Shown: piece by piece, positions 1 to 22,641 of the stretch | Layout: each line of letters starts with the position of its first letter | Position numbering within the stretch: the first letter of the stretch is position 1 | Assembly: GCA_038326995.1 (NCBI GenBank) | Contig: JBBQKP010000001.1 | Location: forward strand, 1 to 56,576 | DNA: 56,576 nt | Direction: 5' to 3' | DNA from: Tepidisphaerales bacterium | GTDB taxonomy: Bacteria; Planctomycetota; Phycisphaerae; Tepidisphaerales; Tepidisphaeraceae | Notes under the pieces: model-generated | What the model saw: the letters and a program-made list of their open reading frames with translations, nothing else | The model's database searches: none | What the model was told of the DNA's origin: nothing | Made by a program: the position numbers and the translations under genes

Positions 1-3000
1 AGCTACTCACTCGCCGAAGCCCGCTACACGACTGACGAATGTCGCGCCCTTCGCCTGACCTTCGGCATGCCGTTCCGCGTGACGCTTCGCCTCATCCGCA
101 AGGACAAGAGCGACATCATCGAAGAAGCCATTTATCTCGGCGAAATCCCGATCATGATCGGCGGCGGCGAGTTCATCATCAACGGCTCTGAGCGCGTGAT
201 CGTGAATCAGCTCCACCGCTCGCCCGGCGTCGACTTCCTCGTCGAAGTTTCTGAAGGCGACCGACCGCTTCATGCCTTCCGCATCATCCCAGAGCGCGGA
301 AGCTGGATCGAGTGCGGCGTCACCAAGAAAGACTCCCTGGCGGTTCGAATCGACCAGTCCTCGAAGATTCCCGCAACTACGTTTCTTCGCGCTTTGGATT
401 CCAAATACAGCGGCAACGAAGCCATAATCCGCGAGTTCTACACTGTAGAAAACGTCAAGGTCGGCCAGCTTCAGCCCCAATACTACGCCGCCGCCTCAAT
501 CATCGATCAGGAATCGGGCGAAGAGCTCGTCAAGGCTGGGGCACAGCTTGGCGACGCGATCGCGAAGATCCAAGCCGCCCCGAAGCTCAAGAGCATCGCG
601 TGCATCACCGATGTGAAGGACAATCTCGTCCTCAATACGCTCGCCGACGATAACGCCAACAGCCACGAAGAAGCCCTCATGCGTATCTACGCGCGGCTTC
701 GTCCGGGCAACCCGCCACAACTCGAAAAAGCCAAGACGCTGTTCCAGGAAAAGTTCTTCGACGAAGCACGCTATCGACTCGGCCGCGTCGGCCGATTCCG
801 CACGAACCGCAAGTTCGAGCAGAACGTGCCCGAAACCGAGATGGTTCTCCGCTCGGAAGACCTCGTGAACTCGCTGAAATACCTCATGCAGCTGCGCGAC
901 CCGCAGGGCAAAGGGTACGTCGACGATATCGATCACCTGGGCAACCGACGCCTGCGAACCATCGACGAACTGGCCCAGGAAGAACTCCGTAAGGGTTTCC
1001 TCAAGCTCAAACGCACCGTCCAGGAGCGAATGAGCCTGAAAGACCCCAACGAGGTCACCAAGATTGCCGAGCTGGTCAACAGCAAGAGCATCTCTTCGGC
1101 GATCGACTTCTTCTTCGGTCGCGGCGAGCTCTCTCAGGTGGTCGATCAGACCAACCCATTGAGCCAGCTCACACACGAAAGACGCCTGTCGGCCCTTGGG
1201 CCTGGCGGCTTGAACCGAAAACGCGCGGGCTTCGAAGTACGCGACGTTCACATCTCCCACTACGGCCGAATCTGTCCGATCGAAACGCCTGAAGGCACGA
1301 ACATCGGACTGATTGCGTCGCTTTCCATCTACTCAGACATCGACGAATACGGCTTCCTCATCACGCCTTACCGCGTGGTCGAAGACAGCAAAACCAACGG
1401 CCAGATCAAGTACCTTCGCGCCGACGAAGAAATGAAGGCCGTCCTCGCTCCGCCCGATGCGGTAGACGTCGACGGCGTGCTGAAGAAGGGCACGACGCTC
1501 GCCCGCGTTCAAGGCGACTTGAACTCCGTCAGTTCACGAGATGTTCAGTACATCGATATCTCGCCCAAACAGACCGTGTCGGTGTCTGCCGCGCTCATTC
1601 CGTTCCTCGAGCACGATGACGCGAACCGAGCCCTGATGGGATCGAACATGCAGCGCCAAGGCGTTCCGCTCCTGCGGACCGACCCGCCGGTGGTCGCGAC
1701 TGGTCTGGAAAGACCCGTTGCAGCCAACAGTGGTCTACTGGTCCGCGCAGAACGCGCGGGTCTGGTGACATACTGTGACAGCCAGCGTCTTCTCATTGAC
1801 AACGCCGACGAATACGTCTTCCGTAAATTCGTAGGCCTGAACGAGCGGACCTGTCAAAACCAGAAGCCGATCGTGAAGAAGGGTCAGCGCGTCAAGAAGG
1901 GCCAGATCCTGGCCGACGGTGCGGCGACATATCAGGGCGAACTCGCCCTGGGCCGCAACGTACTCGTCGCGTTCATGACATTCGACGGCTACAACTTCGA
2001 AGATGCCATCGTGATCTCCGAGCGACTCGTGAAGGAAGACACCTACACCTCGATTCACATCGAAGCGTACGACGTCGAAATTCGCGAGACCAAGCTGGGC
2101 CGTGAAGAATTCACGCGTGACATCCCTAACGTCAGCGAAAAGGCACTGAATAACCTCGACGAGGCGGGCATCGTTCGCGTGGGAACACGCGTCGGTGCTG
2201 GTGATATCCTCGTGGGCAAAATCAGCCCCAAGAGCAAGAGTGAACTGACGCCCGAAGAAAAGCTGCTCCATGCGATCTTCGGCCGGGCAGGTGAAGACGT
2301 GAAGAACGACTCGCTCGAAATGCCCGCGGGCGAAGAAGGCGTCGTCATCGGCGCTCAGCGGTTCAGCCGCCGAATGCACATGACCGACGACCAGAAGAAG
2401 GTGCTTAAGAAGGACATCGAACGCTACGAGCGTGAGATGGACCTTAAGAGCATCCAGATCTTCAAAGACATGATCATCGAGATCAACGAAGTCGCGGGCA
2501 CGGAAATGGTCGATCCTGGCACCCGCCAGAAAGTCGCCAAGAGCGAAAACCCCGACGTCGTGCTCGAACAGATCGAAACCTTCAAGACCGACTGGATCAA
2601 GGGCAGTAAAGAAGCCAAAGATCAGGCAATGAACACCTATTCCAGGTTCTGGCCGCGAATTATCGCAGTCAGCAAGGAAAAGGCGCGCAAAGTCGATCAC
2701 ATGAAGCGTGGGGACGAACTCGCCAGCGGCGTCCTGGAAATGGTCAAGATTTACATCGCGACCAAACGCCAGCTTTCTGTCGGCGATAAGATGGCTGGTC
2801 GGCACGGGAACAAGGGCGTCATCGCCCGAATCGTCCCCGAGCAGGACATGCCGTTCCTCGAAGACGGTTCGCCCGTCGATATTCTGCTCAACCCGCTGGG
2901 CGTGCCCAGCCGTATGAATGTCGGGCAGATTCTCGAAACCCACCTGGGCTGGGCTGCAGCAGTTCTCGGCTTTCAGGCCGTCACTCCCGTGTTCGACGGT

Positions 3001-3573
3001 GCGACCGAAGGTGAAATCTTCGACGCCGTTGAAGAAGCGAACAAGTCGACGATCGAGAAGCGTAAAGAACGTGAAAAGAAGGGCATCCCGCTCGGCAATC
3101 GCGAGTTCGACGTCGTCATGCCCTACGGCGGAAAGCTACAACTCTTTGACGGCCGCACCGGCGAGCCGTTCGAGCAGAAGACCACTGTCGGCTATCTATA
3201 TATGATGAAGCTGCACCACCTGGTCGACGATAAAATCCACGCCCGAAGCACCGGACCCTACTCACTCATCACCCAACAGCCGCTCGGCGGCAAGGCTCGC
3301 ACCGGCGGCCAGCGATTCGGGGAGATGGAAGTCTGGGGCCTCGAGGCCTACGGCGCGGCCTACATCCTCCAGGAACTGCTCACCGTCAAATCCGATGACG
3401 TCGAAGGACGTACCAAGATTTACGAGAGCATGGTTAAGGGCACCAACTCACTCGAGGCCGGCACCCCCGTCAGCTTCGACGTGCTGTGCAACGAAATCCG
3501 AGGCCTGGGACTCAATATCCAACTGGAGAAGAAGAACGGCGTCAGCTCGCCGGTCGATGAAGACCTGATGTAA
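1..3573 (+). CDS. rpoB: DNA-directed RNA polymerase beta subunit, 5' end outside window
   Basis: The frame is open from base 1 ([25 protein letters not shown]...), so the listed ATG at 67 is internal. Classic beta-subunit motifs are present: [80 protein letters not shown]. Stop TAA at 3571-3573. Confidence 0.98.
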
Positions 3574-3588
3574 AGCAACTGCCGAGTT

Positions 3589-3603
3589 AGATCCAGTGGA
3601 TCT
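3589..3603. repeat. 15-bp palindrome agatccaGtggatct in the rpoB-ORF A spacer
   Basis: Read directly: 7-nt arms agatcca/tggatct around a single central base, starting 16 nt after the rpoB stop and ending 34 nt before the GTG of the first small ORF. Function unknown (operator or insertion scar). Confidence 0.5.
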
Positions 3604-3636
3604 TCGTAAGTGCTCTCGCAATAGAAGGAAGCTGTC

Positions 3637-3888
3637 GTGCTGTTCGAGATAGTCGGTCCCATCAACAGCATAGAAGTCATCGCGACAGGAAGCGGCGTAC
3701 GGACGCGAAAAGAACTTTCTAAGCGTTTCGGTCACTCAGGCGCACGGTGGCGTAAGTTAAAAGGACTTGCCACCGTACGATTGATGGACACTTCGCCCAG
3801 AACTTCGCTTCGAAAGGCCGAGGTCCATTGGTACGAAGCTCACGGAATCGGCAAGGTGCTTTTCAAGATCAAACGATATGTCGACTAA
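3637..3888 (+). CDS. small basic protein (83 aa), uncharacterised family with C-terminal AEVHWYEAHGIGK..KIKRY motif
   Basis: GTG start with AAGGA about 7 nt upstream, and an uninterrupted 83 codons. The product is rich in R/K. The motif HWYEAHGIGK matches, from memory, a widespread family of unannotated small proteins. Same strand as rpoB/rpoC. Confidence 0.65.
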   Translation: MLFEIVGPINSIEVIATGSGVRTRKELSKRFGHSGARWRKLKGLATVRLMDTSPRTSLRKAEVHWYEAHGIGKVLFKIKRYVD

Positions 3889-4189
3889 AATCACCCCATC
3901 TCTCCGAACACCACAAAACAAGAGCAAGCCATCTCGTTCGAAGATTACCTCATCAAACGTAGCTAATATCAGTGTGATCTGCGTCAAAAATGGTGAGTTT
4001 ACTAGCGAGTTGCACGTCGGTAAGGTTTACCTTTTGGAAAAATCTGAACCAGGTGATCTTGAAACGAATCTCAGGATAATCGACGAGTCAGGCGAATCTT
4101 ACCTCTATCCGGCGACATGGTTTGAGTCAGTACAAGTTTCCAACCGAGCGATCAAAATCATTCGACACGCCCAGAAAATAGCCTGCTGA
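3878..4189 (+). CDS. small protein (103 aa, or ~71 aa from in-frame GTG 3974) with acidic core motif [17 protein letters not shown], uncharacterised family
   Basis: ATG 3878 overlaps the stop of the preceding ORF (TAA 3886-3888) by 11 nt. The core [18 protein letters not shown]...[14 protein letters not shown] resembles, from memory, a widespread unannotated small-protein family. The N-terminal 30 aa are low complexity, so the true start may be GTG 3974. Local GC is about 45% by hand count. Confidence 0.6.
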
Positions 4190-4239
4190 TCGCAGTCTGC
4201 ATGATAGTTAGAATTCATACGAATCAATCGAGAAATAAC

Positions 4240-8646
<4,407 letters not shown>

Positions 8647-17083: not shown

Positions 17084-17806
17084 ATGATCGAACCGAGTGA
17101 CGCGAAACAACCCGTCTCGCAGACCAGAGGCGTCAGCGCATCGGTCTCCGAGATCGCCCCCCAGTCTGCCGGTCATCAACCGCCGCCCTATGTAAGACGG
17201 CTCAGCTTGTATTTGCGTCAGTTGGAGCATCTCGCGGAGACGGGTCAATCCCGCATCAACAGCAAGCAGCTGGGCGATCTGCTGGGACTGACCGACGGGC
17301 AGGTCCGCAAGGACCTGGCTCATTTTGGTCAATTCGGGCATCCGGGCATTGGCTATCGTGTCGCGGAACTCTCGCGTCAGATCAGGCACATCCTGGGCAT
17401 CGACAGGCCTTGGAATGTGATATTGATCGGCGCGGGCAATCTCGGAAAAGCACTGGCGTCTCACAAGGGATTTGAAGGAAGAAACATGCATTTGCTCGCG
17501 GTGCTAGATACGGACAAAACGCGTGTCGGCGAAGAAATCGCCGGGCTGAAAATTGAAGCAATGGGCGAACTGGCGAGTGTCGTCAAGCGGACGTCGGCTC
17601 AGCTTGCGATCGTTGCGGTGCCGGCATCGGCGGCGCAAGCCGTCGCAGACGCACTGGTCGCGGCGGGGGTGCGGTCGATCCTGAATTTCGCCCCTCGTCT
17701 GCTCACAGTTTCTCGGGGCGTTCTTGTCAATAATGTGGACTTGGCCCAGCAGTTGGAGCAACTCGCCTTTCAAACGCATTTCGCCGACGAGAGTTCGAAT
17801 TCCTAA
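17084..17806 (+). CDS. rex: redox-sensing transcriptional repressor Rex
   Basis: RLSLYLRQLE...INSKQLGDLLGLTDGQVRKDLAHFGQFGHPGIGY (winged helix) followed by a Rossmann ILIGAGNLGKAL. There is a ~35-aa N-terminal extension relative to typical Rex. Confidence 0.9.
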   Translation: MIEPSDAKQPVSQTRGVSASVSEIAPQSAGHQPPPYVRRLSLYLRQLEHLAETGQSRINSKQLGDLLGLTDGQVRKDLAHFGQFGHPGIGYRVAELSRQIRHILGIDRPWNVILIGAGNLGKALASHKGFEGRNMHLLAVLDTDKTRVGEEIAGLKIEAMGELASVVKRTSAQLAIVAVPASAAQAVADALVAAGVRSILNFAPRLLTVSRGVLVNNVDLAQQLEQLAFQTHFADESSNS

Positions 17807-18253
17807 AAAAATCGTCTCCAGAACGAATTGCGCAAAAGCTGCGCTAAGGGTAGTCCCGTTTTATCTTGCCCAGATTAACGCAAGAGGGTTTAGTCGCGGG
17901 GAAACTATTTACGATTGTAAATCCGTTACAGGTCGATTAAGTGGCCATCATATCCCGTCGAAATGATTAATGTCAGGCAATTACGACTCCCACACGAAAA
18001 ATAGTTCAGGCGCAAATACGGCGCAAAATAAAACTTTTTTTCCGGTGTTACATGGCTTGATCAGTCTTTCCCTTACGGGCTATAAGTTCAAAGCCTTATC
18101 GGTCCTTCGCTAATGGGCGACGGACGGCAAGAGCGTTGCAACATGGGTCGTGGCGGCAGATAGCGTGTCGTGCTCAAGCCCGTCGGTATGACCTAACGCA
18201 TCGCTCGACATTTCAGTAAACCCTTGGATCCCTTGAGAGGGAGAAACCAGCCC

Positions 18254-20161
18254 ATGGCCTTTAATAAGCAGCAAGCTCACGCCCCCCGTATCAAGACCAA
18301 GCTCATGCGGACGCTTCCACGGCAGATTACAATTCTGCGGACTCCTCCCCGGGCGCTGGTCGAGAATCTTGAGAATCGGCAACTTTTTGCCTTTTCTGCC
18401 GACATTAATTTCCAGCCCAGTTGGGATTCGACCCCAAGGGATCATTATCCCGACACAGGTGCGACCTACAACTCGCGGTTCGGAATAACCTACGGTTGGG
18501 ACTCCGACAACTCGGCTAACCAATTACGCAGAAGGCAGGGCGGCGAGCAGCGCCTTGATACCTTCGCGAATTTTGGCACGGGAAATCAGGCCAGAACTTG
18601 GGAAGTGGCCGTTCCCAATGGAACGTACTCAGTGTCATTGGCTGCAGGTGATCCGGCCTCTAACGAAGCTTATTACAACATCAATGTCGAAGGGCGAAAC
18701 CTGGTCAACGGCGCGCCCAATTCGAGTCAACGATGGCTCAATCGCAGTGGGAGCGTCACAGTCACCGACGGCAGACTGTCTGTTACCAGTGGCAATGGCG
18801 CCTGGAACAACCGAATCAACTTCATCTCGATTCGCCAGACCTCAGAGTTGGGGACTTTCTCTCCTTCACCCTCTCCCTCGCCTTCGCCGACACCTTCGCC
18901 GACACCTTCGCCGACACCTAGTCCCTCACCCTCACCGACACCCAGCAATCAGGCGCCGGGCCGGCCCTGGGGTGCGTTCGTTTCCAACGGCTCGGGTACG
19001 GACCTGAACCTCTCATGGCTCGATGCTTCAAGCAACGAAGAAGGCTTCCGTCTGGAACTTTCGATCGACGGCAGCAACTGGAACCGTATCGCCACCACGG
19101 GTGCGAACGCCACCAACTTCACCGCAACAGGCCTTCAAGCCAACACGCGATATTGGTTCCGCGTGCAGGCGTTCAACTCGGCAGGCAGCAGCGACCATCG
19201 TCAGTCCGGCACAGTGGTGACGGGCGGCAACGGGGCTTCCAATCCTGCTCCATCGCCGACACCAGCTTCCACGCCATCACCCACTCCGACACTATCACCC
19301 ACTCCGACACTATCACCCACTCCGGGGAACAATGGCGGCGGCGTGAGGCCGGTCGTGAACGACCAAAATATCGCCAATAGGTACAATCGGCTTACGTTCA
19401 ACGACGAGTTTAGCGGGTTTAGTCTGGATCAAAGTAAGTGGCGACATGAGTTTCAAGGACCACGTCGTGACGCCATTAACGTCCCAGAAGCAGTGTCCGT
19501 CGAGAACGGCGACCTGGTCATCCGCACCTACACCGAAAATAACACCCACTACACCGGTATCGTCAGCACCCGAGACAGATTCCAGCAGGCACATGGCTTC
19601 TTCGAAGCTCGGATCGATTTTGACTCCGCCCCCGGCATGTGGTCCGCGTTCTGGATTCACTCATGGAATATGCACAACGGCAACGCCGGCCGAAGCCCGG
19701 GCAACGCGAGTTCACTCGGCAACGAAGTCGATGTCGTCGAGCATCGCTCACACGACGCGGGCAACAACTACCGCGGCAATAAAGCCAGCCTCGCCGTGCA
19801 TTGGGACGGATATCGCGAGAACCAACGCACCGTCTTCGAAGACTCAGACCGTTTGGGTAACATCAACGCCGACCAGGGATATCACGTTTACGGCGTCGAA
19901 TGGACCGAAAACGCTTACAACTTCTATGTTGATGGCCGATTCTGGTACACGCTCAACCGGCAGGTCGCTCAGGACCGTGGCATCACCACCAACCCGATCA
20001 GCAACTTCCCCCAGTTCCTGATCCTCAGCTCGGAAGTCCAAAACGGAATCTGGGCCGGCAACGTGCCCAACGGCGGCTACGGCGATCGCGCCTCGACCAA
20101 CGTCAAGATGAAGGTCGACTACGTCCGGGTTTTCGCAAGTTCATCGCAGATCGTCTTGTAG
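18254..20161 (+). CDS. secreted multidomain glycoside hydrolase family 16 (beta-glucanase/laminarinase-like): malectin-like CBM, PS/PT linker, FN3, PT linker, GH16
   Basis: GH16 catalytic motif GNEVDVVEH plus FNDEFSG...LDQSKW and GMWSAFW. FN3 is seen in LSWLDASSNEEGFRLE...TRYWFRVQAFNSAG. The N-terminal domain ...GTYSVSLAAGDPAS...NINVEG...GRLSVT... is malectin/CBM-like. LENRQLFA lies near the N-terminus. ATG 18254 is preferred (ORF open from 18224). Confidence 0.9.
   Translation: MAFNKQQAHAPRIKTKLMRTLPRQITILRTPPRALVENLENRQLFAFSADINFQPSWDSTPRDHYPDTGATYNSRFGITYGWDSDNSANQLRRRQGGEQRLDTFANFGTGNQARTWEVAVPNGTYSVSLAAGDPASNEAYYNINVEGRNLVNGAPNSSQRWLNRSGSVTVTDGRLSVTSGNGAWNNRINFISIRQTSELGTFSPSPSPSPSPTPSPTPSPTPSPSPSPTPSNQAPGRPWGAFVSNGSGTDLNLSWLDASSNEEGFRLELSIDGSNWNRIATTGANATNFTATGLQANTRYWFRVQAFNSAGSSDHRQSGTVVTGGNGASNPAPSPTPASTPSPTPTLSPTPTLSPTPGNNGGGVRPVVNDQNIANRYNRLTFNDEFSGFSLDQSKWRHEFQGPRRDAINVPEAVSVENGDLVIRTYTENNTHYTGIVSTRDRFQQAHGFFEARIDFDSAPGMWSAFWIHSWNMHNGNAGRSPGNASSLGNEVDVVEHRSHDAGNNYRGNKASLAVHWDGYRENQRTVFEDSDRLGNINADQGYHVYGVEWTENAYNFYVDGRFWYTLNRQVAQDRGITTNPISNFPQFLILSSEVQNGIWAGNVPNGGYGDRASTNVKMKVDYVRVFASSSQIVL
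18881..18916. repeat. 12-bp exact tandem repeat x3 (ccttcgccgaca) encoding the PSPT linker
   Basis: Read directly, inside the PS/PT linker (about 18862-18945) of the GH16 gene. Confidence 0.9.
19276..19324. repeat. 18-bp tandem repeat x2.7 (atcacccactccgacact) encoding the second PT linker
   Basis: Read directly; encodes SPTPTL SPTPTL SPTPG. Confidence 0.9.
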
Positions 20162-20182
20162 ACTAATGTAATTGTGCACAAC

Positions 20183-20210
20183 GCGGGTCGGCCAAACGAG
20201 GCCGACCCGC
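20183..20210. terminator. hairpin terminator after the GH16 gene (possibly bidirectional)
   Basis: 11-bp perfect stem gcgggtcggcc/ggccgacccgc with loop aaacga, followed by tgcatttt. Confidence 0.7.
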
Positions 20211-20229
20211 TGCATTTTAAGGTCACTCG

Positions 20230-20880
20230 CTAGTTGGCAGATAATTCATCGAGTTTTAGGTTCAATTCAGTGGCCGTTTCAAATTCAAATTTCCTCGCAA
20301 ACTGTTCGTGCCTATTCCGAAGCACCTGCAGATGGTCCATGCCGAGGGTTTGAGGACGTTGATCGGTTTTATTCGCCCATTGTACGTAGGTGGTGAAGGT
20401 GTTTTTGATCTTTAGCGATGCGTGAGATTTTACCAATGTGCGGAAATAGGATTCGTCGGAACACCACGCACGCTCGTTTTGGCGCCGGAGGCCGTTATAT
20501 AGTTCGCGCCCCGTCAAAATTGATTGAGCAACTTTCATATTTCCCGCGAACCGCTGGCTGCCAGCAAAACACTAGAAGTTCGACCTCCACGGAAAGCTAG
20601 GCCAGCCCACCGGCGGGGATGTGATGTTGTAGCGTCTTTGTGTCGGTTTCAACTGACGGCTGAGCCAAAGCACTTTTATGCTTTTGGTGCAATATCGTCG
20701 AAAGGTAACACTTCAGCCGAATGCCAGAATTTCACGATATCTGGTGCCACGACTTGTACGCAAGTCGTTATACGCTCGAAAAATACAATTGATTCGACTG
20801 CTCGCGTTTACCAGGACTTGAATAAAAACCGTGACACCCAAAAATGTCCGAAGAAATGCGATTTGCTGCGTACGGCTGAA
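20230..20880 (-). pseudogene. decayed GT14 (core-2/I-branching type) glycosyltransferase remnant
   Basis: The intact C-terminal ORF (20230-20538) carries SDESYFRTLV ... YVQW......RPQTL......FARKFE, typical of the GT14 C-terminus. The same frame continues upstream through in-frame stops (TAG at 20572-20574, TGA at 20713-20715), reading ...CFAGSQRFAGN... (compare GSQWF). The region is visibly AT-richer than its surroundings, and the N-terminal part is absent. Confidence 0.55.
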
Positions 20881-20994
20881 GTGTTACGGATGACGAACGC
20901 ATCATTATGAGTCATTTATCGGTACGTTGTTTTAAGCAGCACATTTCCTGTCAATCTTTGCCTCGTGTGTAAAAATCGCTTATTATCTAGGCAC

Positions 20995-22641
20995 ATGGCC
21001 GATCAAAAGACCGCTCTTGACCTGCTCGCCACACAGGACGGTGCCCGTTCCGACGCTGAAATGCGGGTATTGTCTGAGATTGCGCAGATTCTAAGCAGCA
21101 CGCTCGACCTACGCGCGGGATTCACCCGAATCATGCAGGTCATCTCCGATCGTCTTCAGATGCATCGCGGCACGCTCGTGCTCTTGGACGAAGCGACCGG
21201 CAGGCTTCGAACCGAGACCGCATTCGGTCTGTCGGCAGAGGATATTGAGCGAAACCGCTTCGCGCTGGGTGAGGGCATCACGGGCAACGTCGTTGCGACC
21301 GGCAGGTCACGCATTATTCCTGACGTTCGCAACGAGACCGATTTTCTGAACCGCACGAATCGACTACGCAGCTACGACAACGCATCGACTCCGATCAGCT
21401 TCATGTGCGTGCCGATCAAGATCGAAAAGCGGCCTGTCGGTGCATTGGCGATCGACAAGCCCTACACGACAGAAGCGCAGCTTAAGGCCGACGAGATTTT
21501 TCTCGGGATCATCGCGGCGTTTTTGGCGCAGGCGATCCAGATCAATCGAATGGTGATGCGGCAAAAGGAGGATCTACTAGGCGAGAACGCACAGCTTCGG
21601 TCTCAGGTTCGCGACCGTTTCAAATTTGAAAGCATCATCGGCGACGCCCCGGCCATGCACGAGGTGTTCAACGTCGTCGGGCAAGTCGCAAGCAGCCGCG
21701 CGACCGTGCTTCTTTTGGGCGAGACCGGCACGGGCAAGGAAATGATCGCCAAGGCGATTCACTACAACAGCCCGCGTAAGGACAAGCCGTTTATCCGCGT
21801 CAATTGCGGCGCACTCACCGGCACGCTGTTGGAAAGCGAGCTCTTCGGACATGTAAAAGGCAGCTTTACCGGAGCCATTCGCGACAAGCTCGGCCGATTC
21901 GAAGCAGCCGACGGCGGGTCGATCTTCCTCGATGAGATCGGCACGATGGAGCCGCAATTGCAGGTCAAACTGCTTCGCGTATTGCAGGAGCGTGAGTTCG
22001 AGCGCGTGGGCGATAATCAGGTGGTAAAGGTGGACGTCCGCGTGATCGCCGCGACGAACGTCGATCTGCAGGAAGAAGTCGCCCGGGGTAATTTTCGTGA
22101 AGATTTGTTCTATCGATTGAACGTCGTCCCGATCTATCTTCCGCCGCTGCGGAATCGGCGCGAGGACATTCCCCGGCTGATCGATTTTTTCCTGGACAAG
22201 TTTAATCAGGTCAACGCCAGAAAACTCAGGCGCATCAATCGCGAGATGCTGAACGTAATGTTGCGATACCCCTGGCCCGGCAACGTTCGCGAGCTCGAGA
22301 ACGCGATGGAGCGGGCGGTCGTGCTCAGCACGGGCGAGGATTTTACCGAGGAACTTTTGCCGCTGTCCGTGCGGATGTTCGCGCAGCAGCGAAAGAGTTT
22401 GCAGAATGCGGAGACGATGGAACTATTGACCCGGCGATTGGCCGATCAGGCGATCAGCGAGTACGAGATGCGCGAGGGCGAAATTTATCAACTCGTGATC
22501 GATCAGGTCGAGCACGCGCTGATCGACAGGGCACTCGCGCGGTGCGGCGGCGTCAAAACCAAGGCGGCCGACTATTTGGGCATCAACCGCAACACGCTTA
22601 ATAAGAAGGTGAAGGATTTGGGCATTGAAACCGTGGACTGA
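20995..22641 (+). CDS. sigma-54-dependent transcriptional activator with N-terminal GAF domain (NifA-like architecture)
   Basis: AAA+ core GETGTGKE, the GAFTGA-like loop GSFTGA, ESELFGH, RVIAATN, and the C-terminal Fis-type HTH (AADYLGINRNTLNKKVK). ATG 20995 is preferred (ORF open from GTG 20965). Confidence 0.93.
   Translation: MADQKTALDLLATQDGARSDAEMRVLSEIAQILSSTLDLRAGFTRIMQVISDRLQMHRGTLVLLDEATGRLRTETAFGLSAEDIERNRFALGEGITGNVVATGRSRIIPDVRNETDFLNRTNRLRSYDNASTPISFMCVPIKIEKRPVGALAIDKPYTTEAQLKADEIFLGIIAAFLAQAIQINRMVMRQKEDLLGENAQLRSQVRDRFKFESIIGDAPAMHEVFNVVGQVASSRATVLLLGETGTGKEMIAKAIHYNSPRKDKPFIRVNCGALTGTLLESELFGHVKGSFTGAIRDKLGRFEAADGGSIFLDEIGTMEPQLQVKLLRVLQEREFERVGDNQVVKVDVRVIAATNVDLQEEVARGNFREDLFYRLNVVPIYLPPLRNRREDIPRLIDFFLDKFNQVNARKLRRINREMLNVMLRYPWPGNVRELENAMERAVVLSTGEDFTEELLPLSVRMFAQQRKSLQNAETMELLTRRLADQAISEYEMREGEIYQLVIDQVEHALIDRALARCGGVKTKAADYLGINRNTLNKKVKDLGIETVD

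Follow-up and report, generated by a model that had tools for sequence, protein, structure and literature searches.

Why does the spacer between rpoB and rpoC in a Tepidisphaerales bacterium (assembly GCA_038326995.1, contig JBBQKP010000001.1) span 666 bp (3574-4239), and what are the two small open reading frames (ORFs) that lie within it? We addressed this question by computational analysis of the first 56,576 nucleotides of the contig (hereafter the window, to which all unprefixed coordinates refer). ORF A (3637..3888, + strand) begins with GTG at 3637, ends with TAA at 3886-3888 and encodes a basic protein of 83 residues with an isoelectric point (pI) of 10.8. ORF B (3878..4189, + strand) begins with ATG at 3878, ends with TGA at 4187-4189 and encodes 103 residues; the one alternative start in this frame, GTG 3974, would shorten the product to 71 residues. 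The two ORFs overlap by 11 nucleotides (nt), which suggests translational coupling. An earlier note on this DNA had already described this layout, and the spacer length, strand, starts and overlap were all confirmed here. That note had also called the pair toxin-antitoxin-like and foreign. Our favoured reading, to which we give a probability of about 70%, is that the spacer has received, by horizontal transfer, a two-gene toxin-immunity (toxin-antitoxin-like) cassette, in which A would be the toxin and B its immunity protein.

Both proteins belong to large families that have gone unannotated. Searching with ORF A at E<=0.01 yields at least 1413 homologues, and the hits span Planctomycetota, Betaproteobacteria, Nitrospinota, Acidobacteriota, Entotheonella and Firmicutes. 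Those listed come from many phyla, are nearly all 76-96 residues long (typically about 77 in the family) and 55-66% identical, and carry the label 'hypothetical'. The family motif reads W-R-K-x-K-G ... A-E-V-H-W-Y-E-A-H-G-I-G ... K-I-K, with HWYEAHGIG among its most conserved parts, and every family-invariant residue is kept in ORF A of the window. The family is basic throughout (median pI 10.6). The AlphaFold2 model of ORF A has a predicted local distance difference test (pLDDT) score of 90.9 and the order beta(3-17)-alpha(24-31)-beta(39-49)-beta(58-68)-beta(72-81). Neither A nor B has a match in Pfam, NCBIfam, PADLOC or PHROGs, and scanning all alignment members of both families at E<=10 brought up no recurring family.

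For ORF B, a word-index search found a single close relative, and an exhaustive phmmer search found 444 family representatives (50%-identity clusters) at E<=1e-3, which share a common core at residues 33-95. The motif IDESGExYLYP is invariant in this family and is among its most conserved parts. The two motifs quoted in the earlier note do mark widespread unannotated families. Identity within the B family is 26-45%, against 55-66% in the A family, so that A is far better conserved. In the AlphaFold2 model of ORF B, an N-terminal tail (pLDDT about 50; residues 1-32, 3878-3973) precedes a five-stranded core (pLDDT about 90; 3974 to about 4132, including the IDESGExYLYP motif), which is followed by a C-terminal helix (about 4142-4183). 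When the core was compared with the PDB by Foldseek, nearly all of the top 50 matches were SH3 domains (probability 0.9-1.0; template modelling (TM) score by target 0.5-0.68), with weak E values of 1e-2 to 1e-1. We take the predicted core to be an SH3-like small beta-barrel, a likeness at the level of the fold and not homology to eukaryotic SH3 domains.

The charges of the two proteins need some care. The pairing of a basic with an acidic protein, as had been proposed earlier, holds for A and the B core (pI 10.8 and 5.6) and fails for the whole of ORF B, whose pI is 9.2 owing to its basic tail (pI 12). The B core is acidic across the family (median pI 4.4). The disordered tail, of about 32 residues and rich in Ser, Thr, Lys and Pro, occurs in two unrelated planctomycete cassettes (3878-3973 of the window and L003:4209-4304), and in both it starts at an ATG that overlaps the end of A. 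Similar tails are present in many other B homologues, and the B copies of phages and Firmicutes are without it. Nucleic-acid binding and control of protein stability are possible roles of the tail.

The two families are strictly paired. We collected 91 loci via A (8 by exact-protein look-ups, 3 from IMG/VR and 80 from metagenomes), and in every one of the 87 with room downstream, A is followed immediately by a B gene on the same strand, mostly at a gap of 2-30 nt. These loci represent about 82 distinct cassettes. The statement of the earlier note that the two families often occur together is borne out. The surroundings are unrelated from copy to copy: the 129 neighbouring genes fall into 114 Pfam families, each of which turns up at most twice, and no integrase or transposase recurs among them. 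One planctomycete copy, for example, sits between a penicillin-binding protein 2 gene and a tRNA methyltransferase (mnmA-type) gene. Free-standing pairs of A (118-138 residues) and B (about 60 residues) are also present in gut Firmicutes. In the loci found via A, A never occurs without B, while B does occur without A, as would be expected if A is harmful in the absence of B. B is also found in other arrangements, namely as tandem B-B fusion proteins (P0122, P0125, P0126, P0179, P0184, P0201) and as the C-terminal domain of 148-residue proteins with an unrelated N-terminus and no A upstream (L175:3689-4135, L181:3746-4192).

It is the phages that offer a context for A. Foldseek comparison of the A model with predicted viral structures matched three uncharacterised phage proteins, one of them a 451-residue 'minor capsid protein' with 36% identity and a TM score of 0.68. 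Scanning IMG/VR with the B alignment yielded 30 loci, and in 26 of them the ORF directly upstream of B carries an A domain at its C-terminal end (hmmsearch E 1e-4 to 1e-35; 1e-10 to 1e-18 for the large MuF-type proteins). Twelve of these 26 proteins are 393-696 residues long and carry the A domain at the extreme C-terminus, for instance at 344-419 of 420 (L177), 591-661 of 665 (L182) and 439-512 of 515 (L196). Their N-terminal parts are Phage_Mu_F (PF04233) or Phage_min_cap2 (PF06152) in six of the seven large proteins scanned; the seventh (L193) had no Pfam match. The MuF-A genes sit in modules of the order terminase-portal-MuF-[B]-scaffold-major capsid, where a B-family ORF of 52-80 residues begins no more than a few nt from the MuF-A stop. 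Free-standing A and the MuF C-terminal domains can be aligned over their full length of about 80 residues, and in the joint alignment W38, H64, W65, K77 and K79 are invariant and K40 and E67 near-invariant.

This architecture is that of the MuF polymorphic toxins, in which a conserved N-terminal MuF domain is followed by a variable C-terminal toxin and a small immunity ORF lies directly downstream (PMC5576092; PMC3482391). The presence of the A domain at the C-termini of phage MuF proteins, followed by B genes, strengthens the toxin-antitoxin reading that had been made from the window sequence. Some B genes of this set stand apart from A: two follow a 269-residue ORF whose C-terminus looks ADP-ribosyltransferase-like by eye and which has no A (L183:2969-4355), and another comes two small ORFs after a protein that is MuF-like by eye and has a different C-terminus (L200:1819-4069). 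Moreover, two B genes follow one MuF-A toxin (L194:2113-2429). Such orphan and duplicated B genes fit immunity arrays and not a structural partner.

With regard to the division of roles, A is the upstream, better-conserved and basic member, and hence the likely toxin, with B as the likely immunity protein. In the mechanism that we propose, ORF A would be a basic toxin domain of about 77 residues that stands on its own and that in phages would form the C-terminal 'warhead' of MuF-type polymorphic toxins. The acidic SH3-like barrel of ORF B would most likely bind A directly and so block it; in the window copy, as in some others, the barrel would come with the predicted basic, disordered N-terminal tail. 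As for the activity of A, we tentatively suggest, at somewhat less than even odds, a metal-independent nuclease, probably a ribonuclease (RNase), with His64, Lys77, Lys79, the near-invariant Lys40 and Glu67, and Glu62 as candidate residues, Glu62 being conserved among the free-standing A copies only. This suggestion derives from the small size and basic charge of A, its conserved His, Glu and Lys on beta-strands, its acidic partner and the fact that MuF toxins are mostly nucleases (more than half of those with recognised domains; PMC5576092). An RNase-like action is a guess made from size, charge and the conserved His, Glu and Lys.

Several results weigh against the toxin-immunity reading. Comparison of A with the PDB by fold gave a best Foldseek hit of E 0.33 with TM scores of at most 0.42, and with no significant PDB match for A no catalytic mechanism can be assigned. 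B has no match to a classical antitoxin DNA-binding domain (ribbon-helix-helix (RHH), helix-turn-helix (HTH), AbrB or Phd), and no conserved operator was apparent upstream of about 80 cassettes, where palindromes averaged 5.17 against 4.76 in shuffled sequence, barely above chance. The A domain was seen on two related delivery domains, MuF1 and MuF2 (PF04233 and PF06152); a further homologue search with MuF-type A domains, which listed proteins shorter than 150 residues, brought up no other carrier. MuF C-terminal extensions of unrecognised type are not proven toxins (PMC5576092). Finally, a plasmid search for A gave a single hit, to a megaplasmid, so that a role in plasmid addiction is not typical of the family. 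Further comparisons of A were also negative: by sequence profile it finds nothing in the PDB at E<=0.1, and no RNase toxin (barnase, RNase T1 or RelE) is among the top 50 PDB fold matches listed for it. Profile hits of A and B to ribosomal proteins and FUS in the PDB were dismissed as noise, and the Foldseek hits of A to Rad52 and NTF2-like folds (E>=0.3, TM<=0.42) were too weak to be used as evidence for our reading.

The unproven toxicity of MuF extensions of unrecognised type leaves some room for a different explanation, in which A and B form a non-toxic heterodimer, for example with A as a nucleic-acid-binding domain of MuF heads and B as its SH3-like partner or chaperone, and the chromosomal pairs are phage fragments that have been domesticated or are decaying. 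Binding of viral DNA has been ascribed to MuF proteins (PMC12226406), A is very basic, and its top PDB fold hits, weak as they are, are Rad52-type domains that bind single-stranded DNA (E 0.3, TM 0.34). We nevertheless consider this explanation unlikely. The free-standing pairs are intact, about 60% identical across phyla, and occur as isolated units without other phage genes; B genes without A are found next to another type of MuF C-terminal domain, which is ADP-ribosyltransferase-like by eye; and the A domain was not detected in the C-terminus of Mu GpF, taken as a proxy for Ct_MAD, the C-terminal MuF-associated domain described by Jamet et al. (PMC5576092).

Returning to the favoured toxin-immunity cassette, its composition sets it apart from the genes around it. 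The G+C content (GC) is 51.6% in ORF A (56% at third codon positions, GC3) and 44.6% in ORF B (GC3 48%), against 58.1% in rpoB (GC3 75%) and 59.1% in rpoC (GC3 78%), in agreement with the low values that had been counted by hand in the earlier note. The whole spacer has a GC of 47.1%. Across the 56.6 kb, segments of 666 nt average 57.7% (standard deviation 3.1); the lowest of them all falls at the rpoB-rpoC spacer, and just 0.4% of them reach its low GC.

The second-lowest region of the window is a separate intergenic gap of about 800 nt (20162-20964, GC 0.47-0.49), which contains no convincing ORF. It lies between a gene for a 645-residue protein rich in Pro/Ser/Thr linkers (18224-20161) and a 558-residue ORF that looks sigma-54-type activator-like by eye (20965-22641). 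Smaller dips in GC occur near 17750 and 42600.

We then surveyed the rpoB-rpoC spacer in 78 other genomes with both genes on one fetched stretch, the nearest relatives included. Neither A nor B lies in this spacer in any of them (0/78), and its length is mostly 10-250 nt, with a few longer cases (500 nt in L017, 418 nt in L069 and 357 nt in L068). In the nearest reference genome (L011, the Planctomycetota metagenome-assembled genome (MAG) H51-bin164_1), the spacer is 584 nt (L011:3430-4013) and holds an unrelated ORF of 161 residues (3459-3944) with a weak GNAT match (PF00583, 21.3 bits versus a cut-off of 20.7). The spacer may thus be an insertion hot spot, or a site tolerant of cargo, in this clade. 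The parts of the spacer that flank the cassette in the window, 63 and 50 nt, together have a normal spacer length, which fits the insertion of a cassette of about 553 nt. Convincing direct repeats were not found at its flanks, and the spacers of relatives could not be aligned with it. Judging from the low GC, the absence from the spacer in 78 genomes and the existence of two contigs about 97% identical to the window (below), the cassette was probably acquired horizontally and recently, in keeping with the origin proposed earlier. The insertion would have happened in one lineage of Planctomycetota, into an ancestral spacer about 110 nt long.

These data bear also on an accessory or regulatory role of A and B related to RNA polymerase, which had been raised earlier as an alternative. 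Its one argument is the location, together with the co-expression with rpoBC that the location implies. The other contexts do not bear it out: none of about 82 other cassettes, nor any of the Firmicutes and phage copies, is near RNA polymerase genes; the pair is missing from the spacer of the 78 other genomes, closest relatives included; the nearest relative has the unrelated GNAT-like ORF in its place; and the composition of the cassette is foreign. We regard such a role as very improbable.

Two metagenome contigs (L001 and L002) show the same order rpoB-A-B-rpoC at about 97% DNA identity to the window, so that the cassette has been retained in three sampled populations about 3% apart in DNA. 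Compared with these contigs, ORF A has 3 synonymous and 2 non-synonymous changes and the ORF B core 15 synonymous and 7 non-synonymous changes, a substitution pattern that is that of coding sequence under purifying selection. It is evident that the differences cluster in the B core, with 22 in 213 nt (3974-4186) against 18 in 679 nt in the remainder of the aligned 3450-4350 region (Fisher p about 1e-5), which takes in the end of rpoB, both spacer parts, ORF A, the B tail and the beginning of rpoC. Rather than uniform divergence, this clustering suggests that the immunity gene has undergone local recombination or allele exchange. A further possibility is that rpoC has a long untranslated leader in which the two reading frames are open by chance. 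Their small size and missing annotation would suit that explanation and nothing more does, while the hundreds to thousands of homologues, the confident structure predictions and the codon-position pattern of substitution all contradict it. We give it next to no credence, and the homologues of A and B together with the substitution pattern led us to rule it out.

How would the cassette be expressed? The rpoB gene (RNA polymerase beta subunit; 1..3573, + strand) is cut at its 5' end by the window start; its frame is uninterrupted from nt 1 to the stop TAA at 3571-3573, the encoded sequence is RpoB-like, and the C-terminal 160 residues are 92% identical to those of the Planctomycetota MAG that is the nearest reference genome (L011). 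The upstream part of the spacer (3574..3636, + strand, 63 nt) probably survives from the ancestral rpoB-rpoC spacer. It contains a Shine-Dalgarno-like sequence, GAAGGAAG (3624-3631, + strand), 5 nt ahead of the ORF A start, and a perfect palindrome of 7+1+7, AGATCCAGTGGATCT (3589-3603, + strand), 34 nt before that start. The arms of this palindrome are 7 nt long against about 4.8 in shuffles, and it is kept in L001 and L002. A role as operator or processing site is possible, though upstream palindromes have little backing across the family. The downstream part (4190..4239, + strand, 50 nt, GC 36%) is the rpoC leader and has 1 difference from L001 and L002. The rpoC gene (RNA polymerase beta' subunit; 4240..8646, + strand) appeared in the ORF list at 4201-8646, and we moved its start to ATG 4240, where the conserved RpoC N-terminus begins; the first 200 residues are 77-79% identical to planctomycete RpoC.

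Consensus scans found neither a terminator-like site on the + strand between the rpoB stop and the rpoC start, as had been stated before, nor a sigma-70-like promoter in the spacer. Transcription of rpoC needs read-through of the spacer and no terminator is seen in it, so the cassette is very probably on the rpoBC transcript. In that case, any expression of the RNA polymerase core operon would yield A and B as well. The Rfam and tRNA scans of the window were empty, and the window contains no second copy of the cassette.

In Firmicutes, one pair of A (138 residues) and B (61 residues) is situated in a probable mobile or defence island (L206:3249-10244 / L207:418-7173), with genes for HTH_3, Peptidase_M78, DUF4417, an N6/N4 DNA methyltransferase and a ResIII helicase as neighbours.

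A toxin-antitoxin-like module might also be selected for phage defence by abortive infection, in which a phage factor displaces B, or is sensed by it, and so frees A; the MuF-A/B pairs of phages would be counter-weapons or the evolutionary source. The patchy, context-free spread of the cassettes resembles that of defence toxin-antitoxin systems, the tie to phage head proteins is direct, and the Firmicutes copy in L206/L207 stands beside methyltransferase, ResIII helicase and HTH/Peptidase_M78 genes. Yet A and B match no PADLOC family, most neighbours of the cassettes are housekeeping genes and not defence islands, and the window copy itself lies in the RNA polymerase operon and not in an island. 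Selection for abortive infection therefore seems improbable to us.

If the toxin-immunity reading holds, two large unannotated families (more than 1400 and more than 440 sequence clusters) would gain a testable assignment, as a toxin domain and an SH3-like immunity protein. It would tie so far unexplained MuF C-terminal extensions to a widespread chromosomal toxin-antitoxin-like cassette, and would extend the short list of toxin domains common to polymorphic toxins and toxin-antitoxin systems. The A model (pLDDT 91, without a PDB match) makes a good target for work on structure and mechanism. A selfish two-gene module within the essential rpoBC operon is unusual, and could show how core operons tolerate or fix such modules. 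A bolder version is that A represents a new toxin family with an unsolved fold and activity, phage-delivered on MuF proteins, present in more than 1000 free-standing cassettes and tied here to rpoBC expression; we hold this version to be doubtful. If it were true, it would be very difficult to remove the cassette or shut it down without polar effects on rpoC, or the cassette would act as a checkpoint coupled to growth rate. The idea of the earlier note that its location makes the module almost impossible to lose is speculation. We found nothing relevant in the literature on the motifs or on toxin-antitoxin modules in the rpoB-rpoC spacer. The unannotated pair of a putative toxin family and an SH3-like immunity family is new but of a known kind, and the site is unusual; no new principle has been shown so far.

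Among known systems, the pair resembles the MuF polymorphic toxins (PMC5576092; PMC3482391) in that the A domain is C-terminal on MuF proteins of phage head modules with a B gene next to it, and in that B genes lacking an A partner accompany other MuF C-terminal domains. It differs from them in that ORF A of the window (83 residues) has no N-terminal delivery domain and lies outside any prophage. The alignment of ORF A from its first residues to the domain start marks the window pair as a free-standing toxin-immunity cassette and not a polymorphic toxin. Also unlike described MuF toxins, the A domain is absent from the Pfam toxin domains and from Mu GpF as far as detected, and it occurs in no cultured phage of INPHARED: searching 50,697 GenBank phages of that collection by tblastn with A, the A consensus and the MuF-type A domains gave no real hit.

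Some toxin domains are common to polymorphic toxins and genomic toxin-antitoxin pairs, namely BECR RNases, RES, Ntox24 and Doc (PMC3482391). Of these, Ntox24 is a small, mostly beta toxin domain with a conserved Tyr and His, found on MuF and other carriers and also in type II pairs with an uncharacterised antitoxin (PMC3482391). Compared by description, it resembles A with its HWYEAH motif, but A has one helix besides its four strands. Scans of 19 A-domain sequences at E<=10 gave no match to Ntox24 or to any other Pfam family, and scans of the full MuF-A proteins at E<=0.01 gave none to a Pfam toxin family.

Toxin-first type II toxin-antitoxin systems (HigBA, HicAB, BrnTA) share with the cassette two small co-directional genes that overlap or abut, a better-conserved basic protein upstream of a faster-evolving partner, and strict co-occurrence of the two genes with a patchy distribution across phyla in unrelated contexts. 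On the other hand, neither A nor B is related in sequence or fold to a toxin or antitoxin of solved structure, B lacks RHH, HTH, AbrB and Phd modules, the cassettes have no conserved operator upstream, and A is almost absent from plasmids. Barnase-barstar and the colicin nuclease-immunity pairs offer an analogy, in which the gene for a small basic enzyme-like protein is followed by that for a small acidic inhibitor. By this analogy, an acidic surface of B might plug a basic active site of A, although B is SH3-like and not barstar- or Im-like. The closest described systems are the C-terminal domain/immunity pairs of polymorphic toxins, and not any named type II family.

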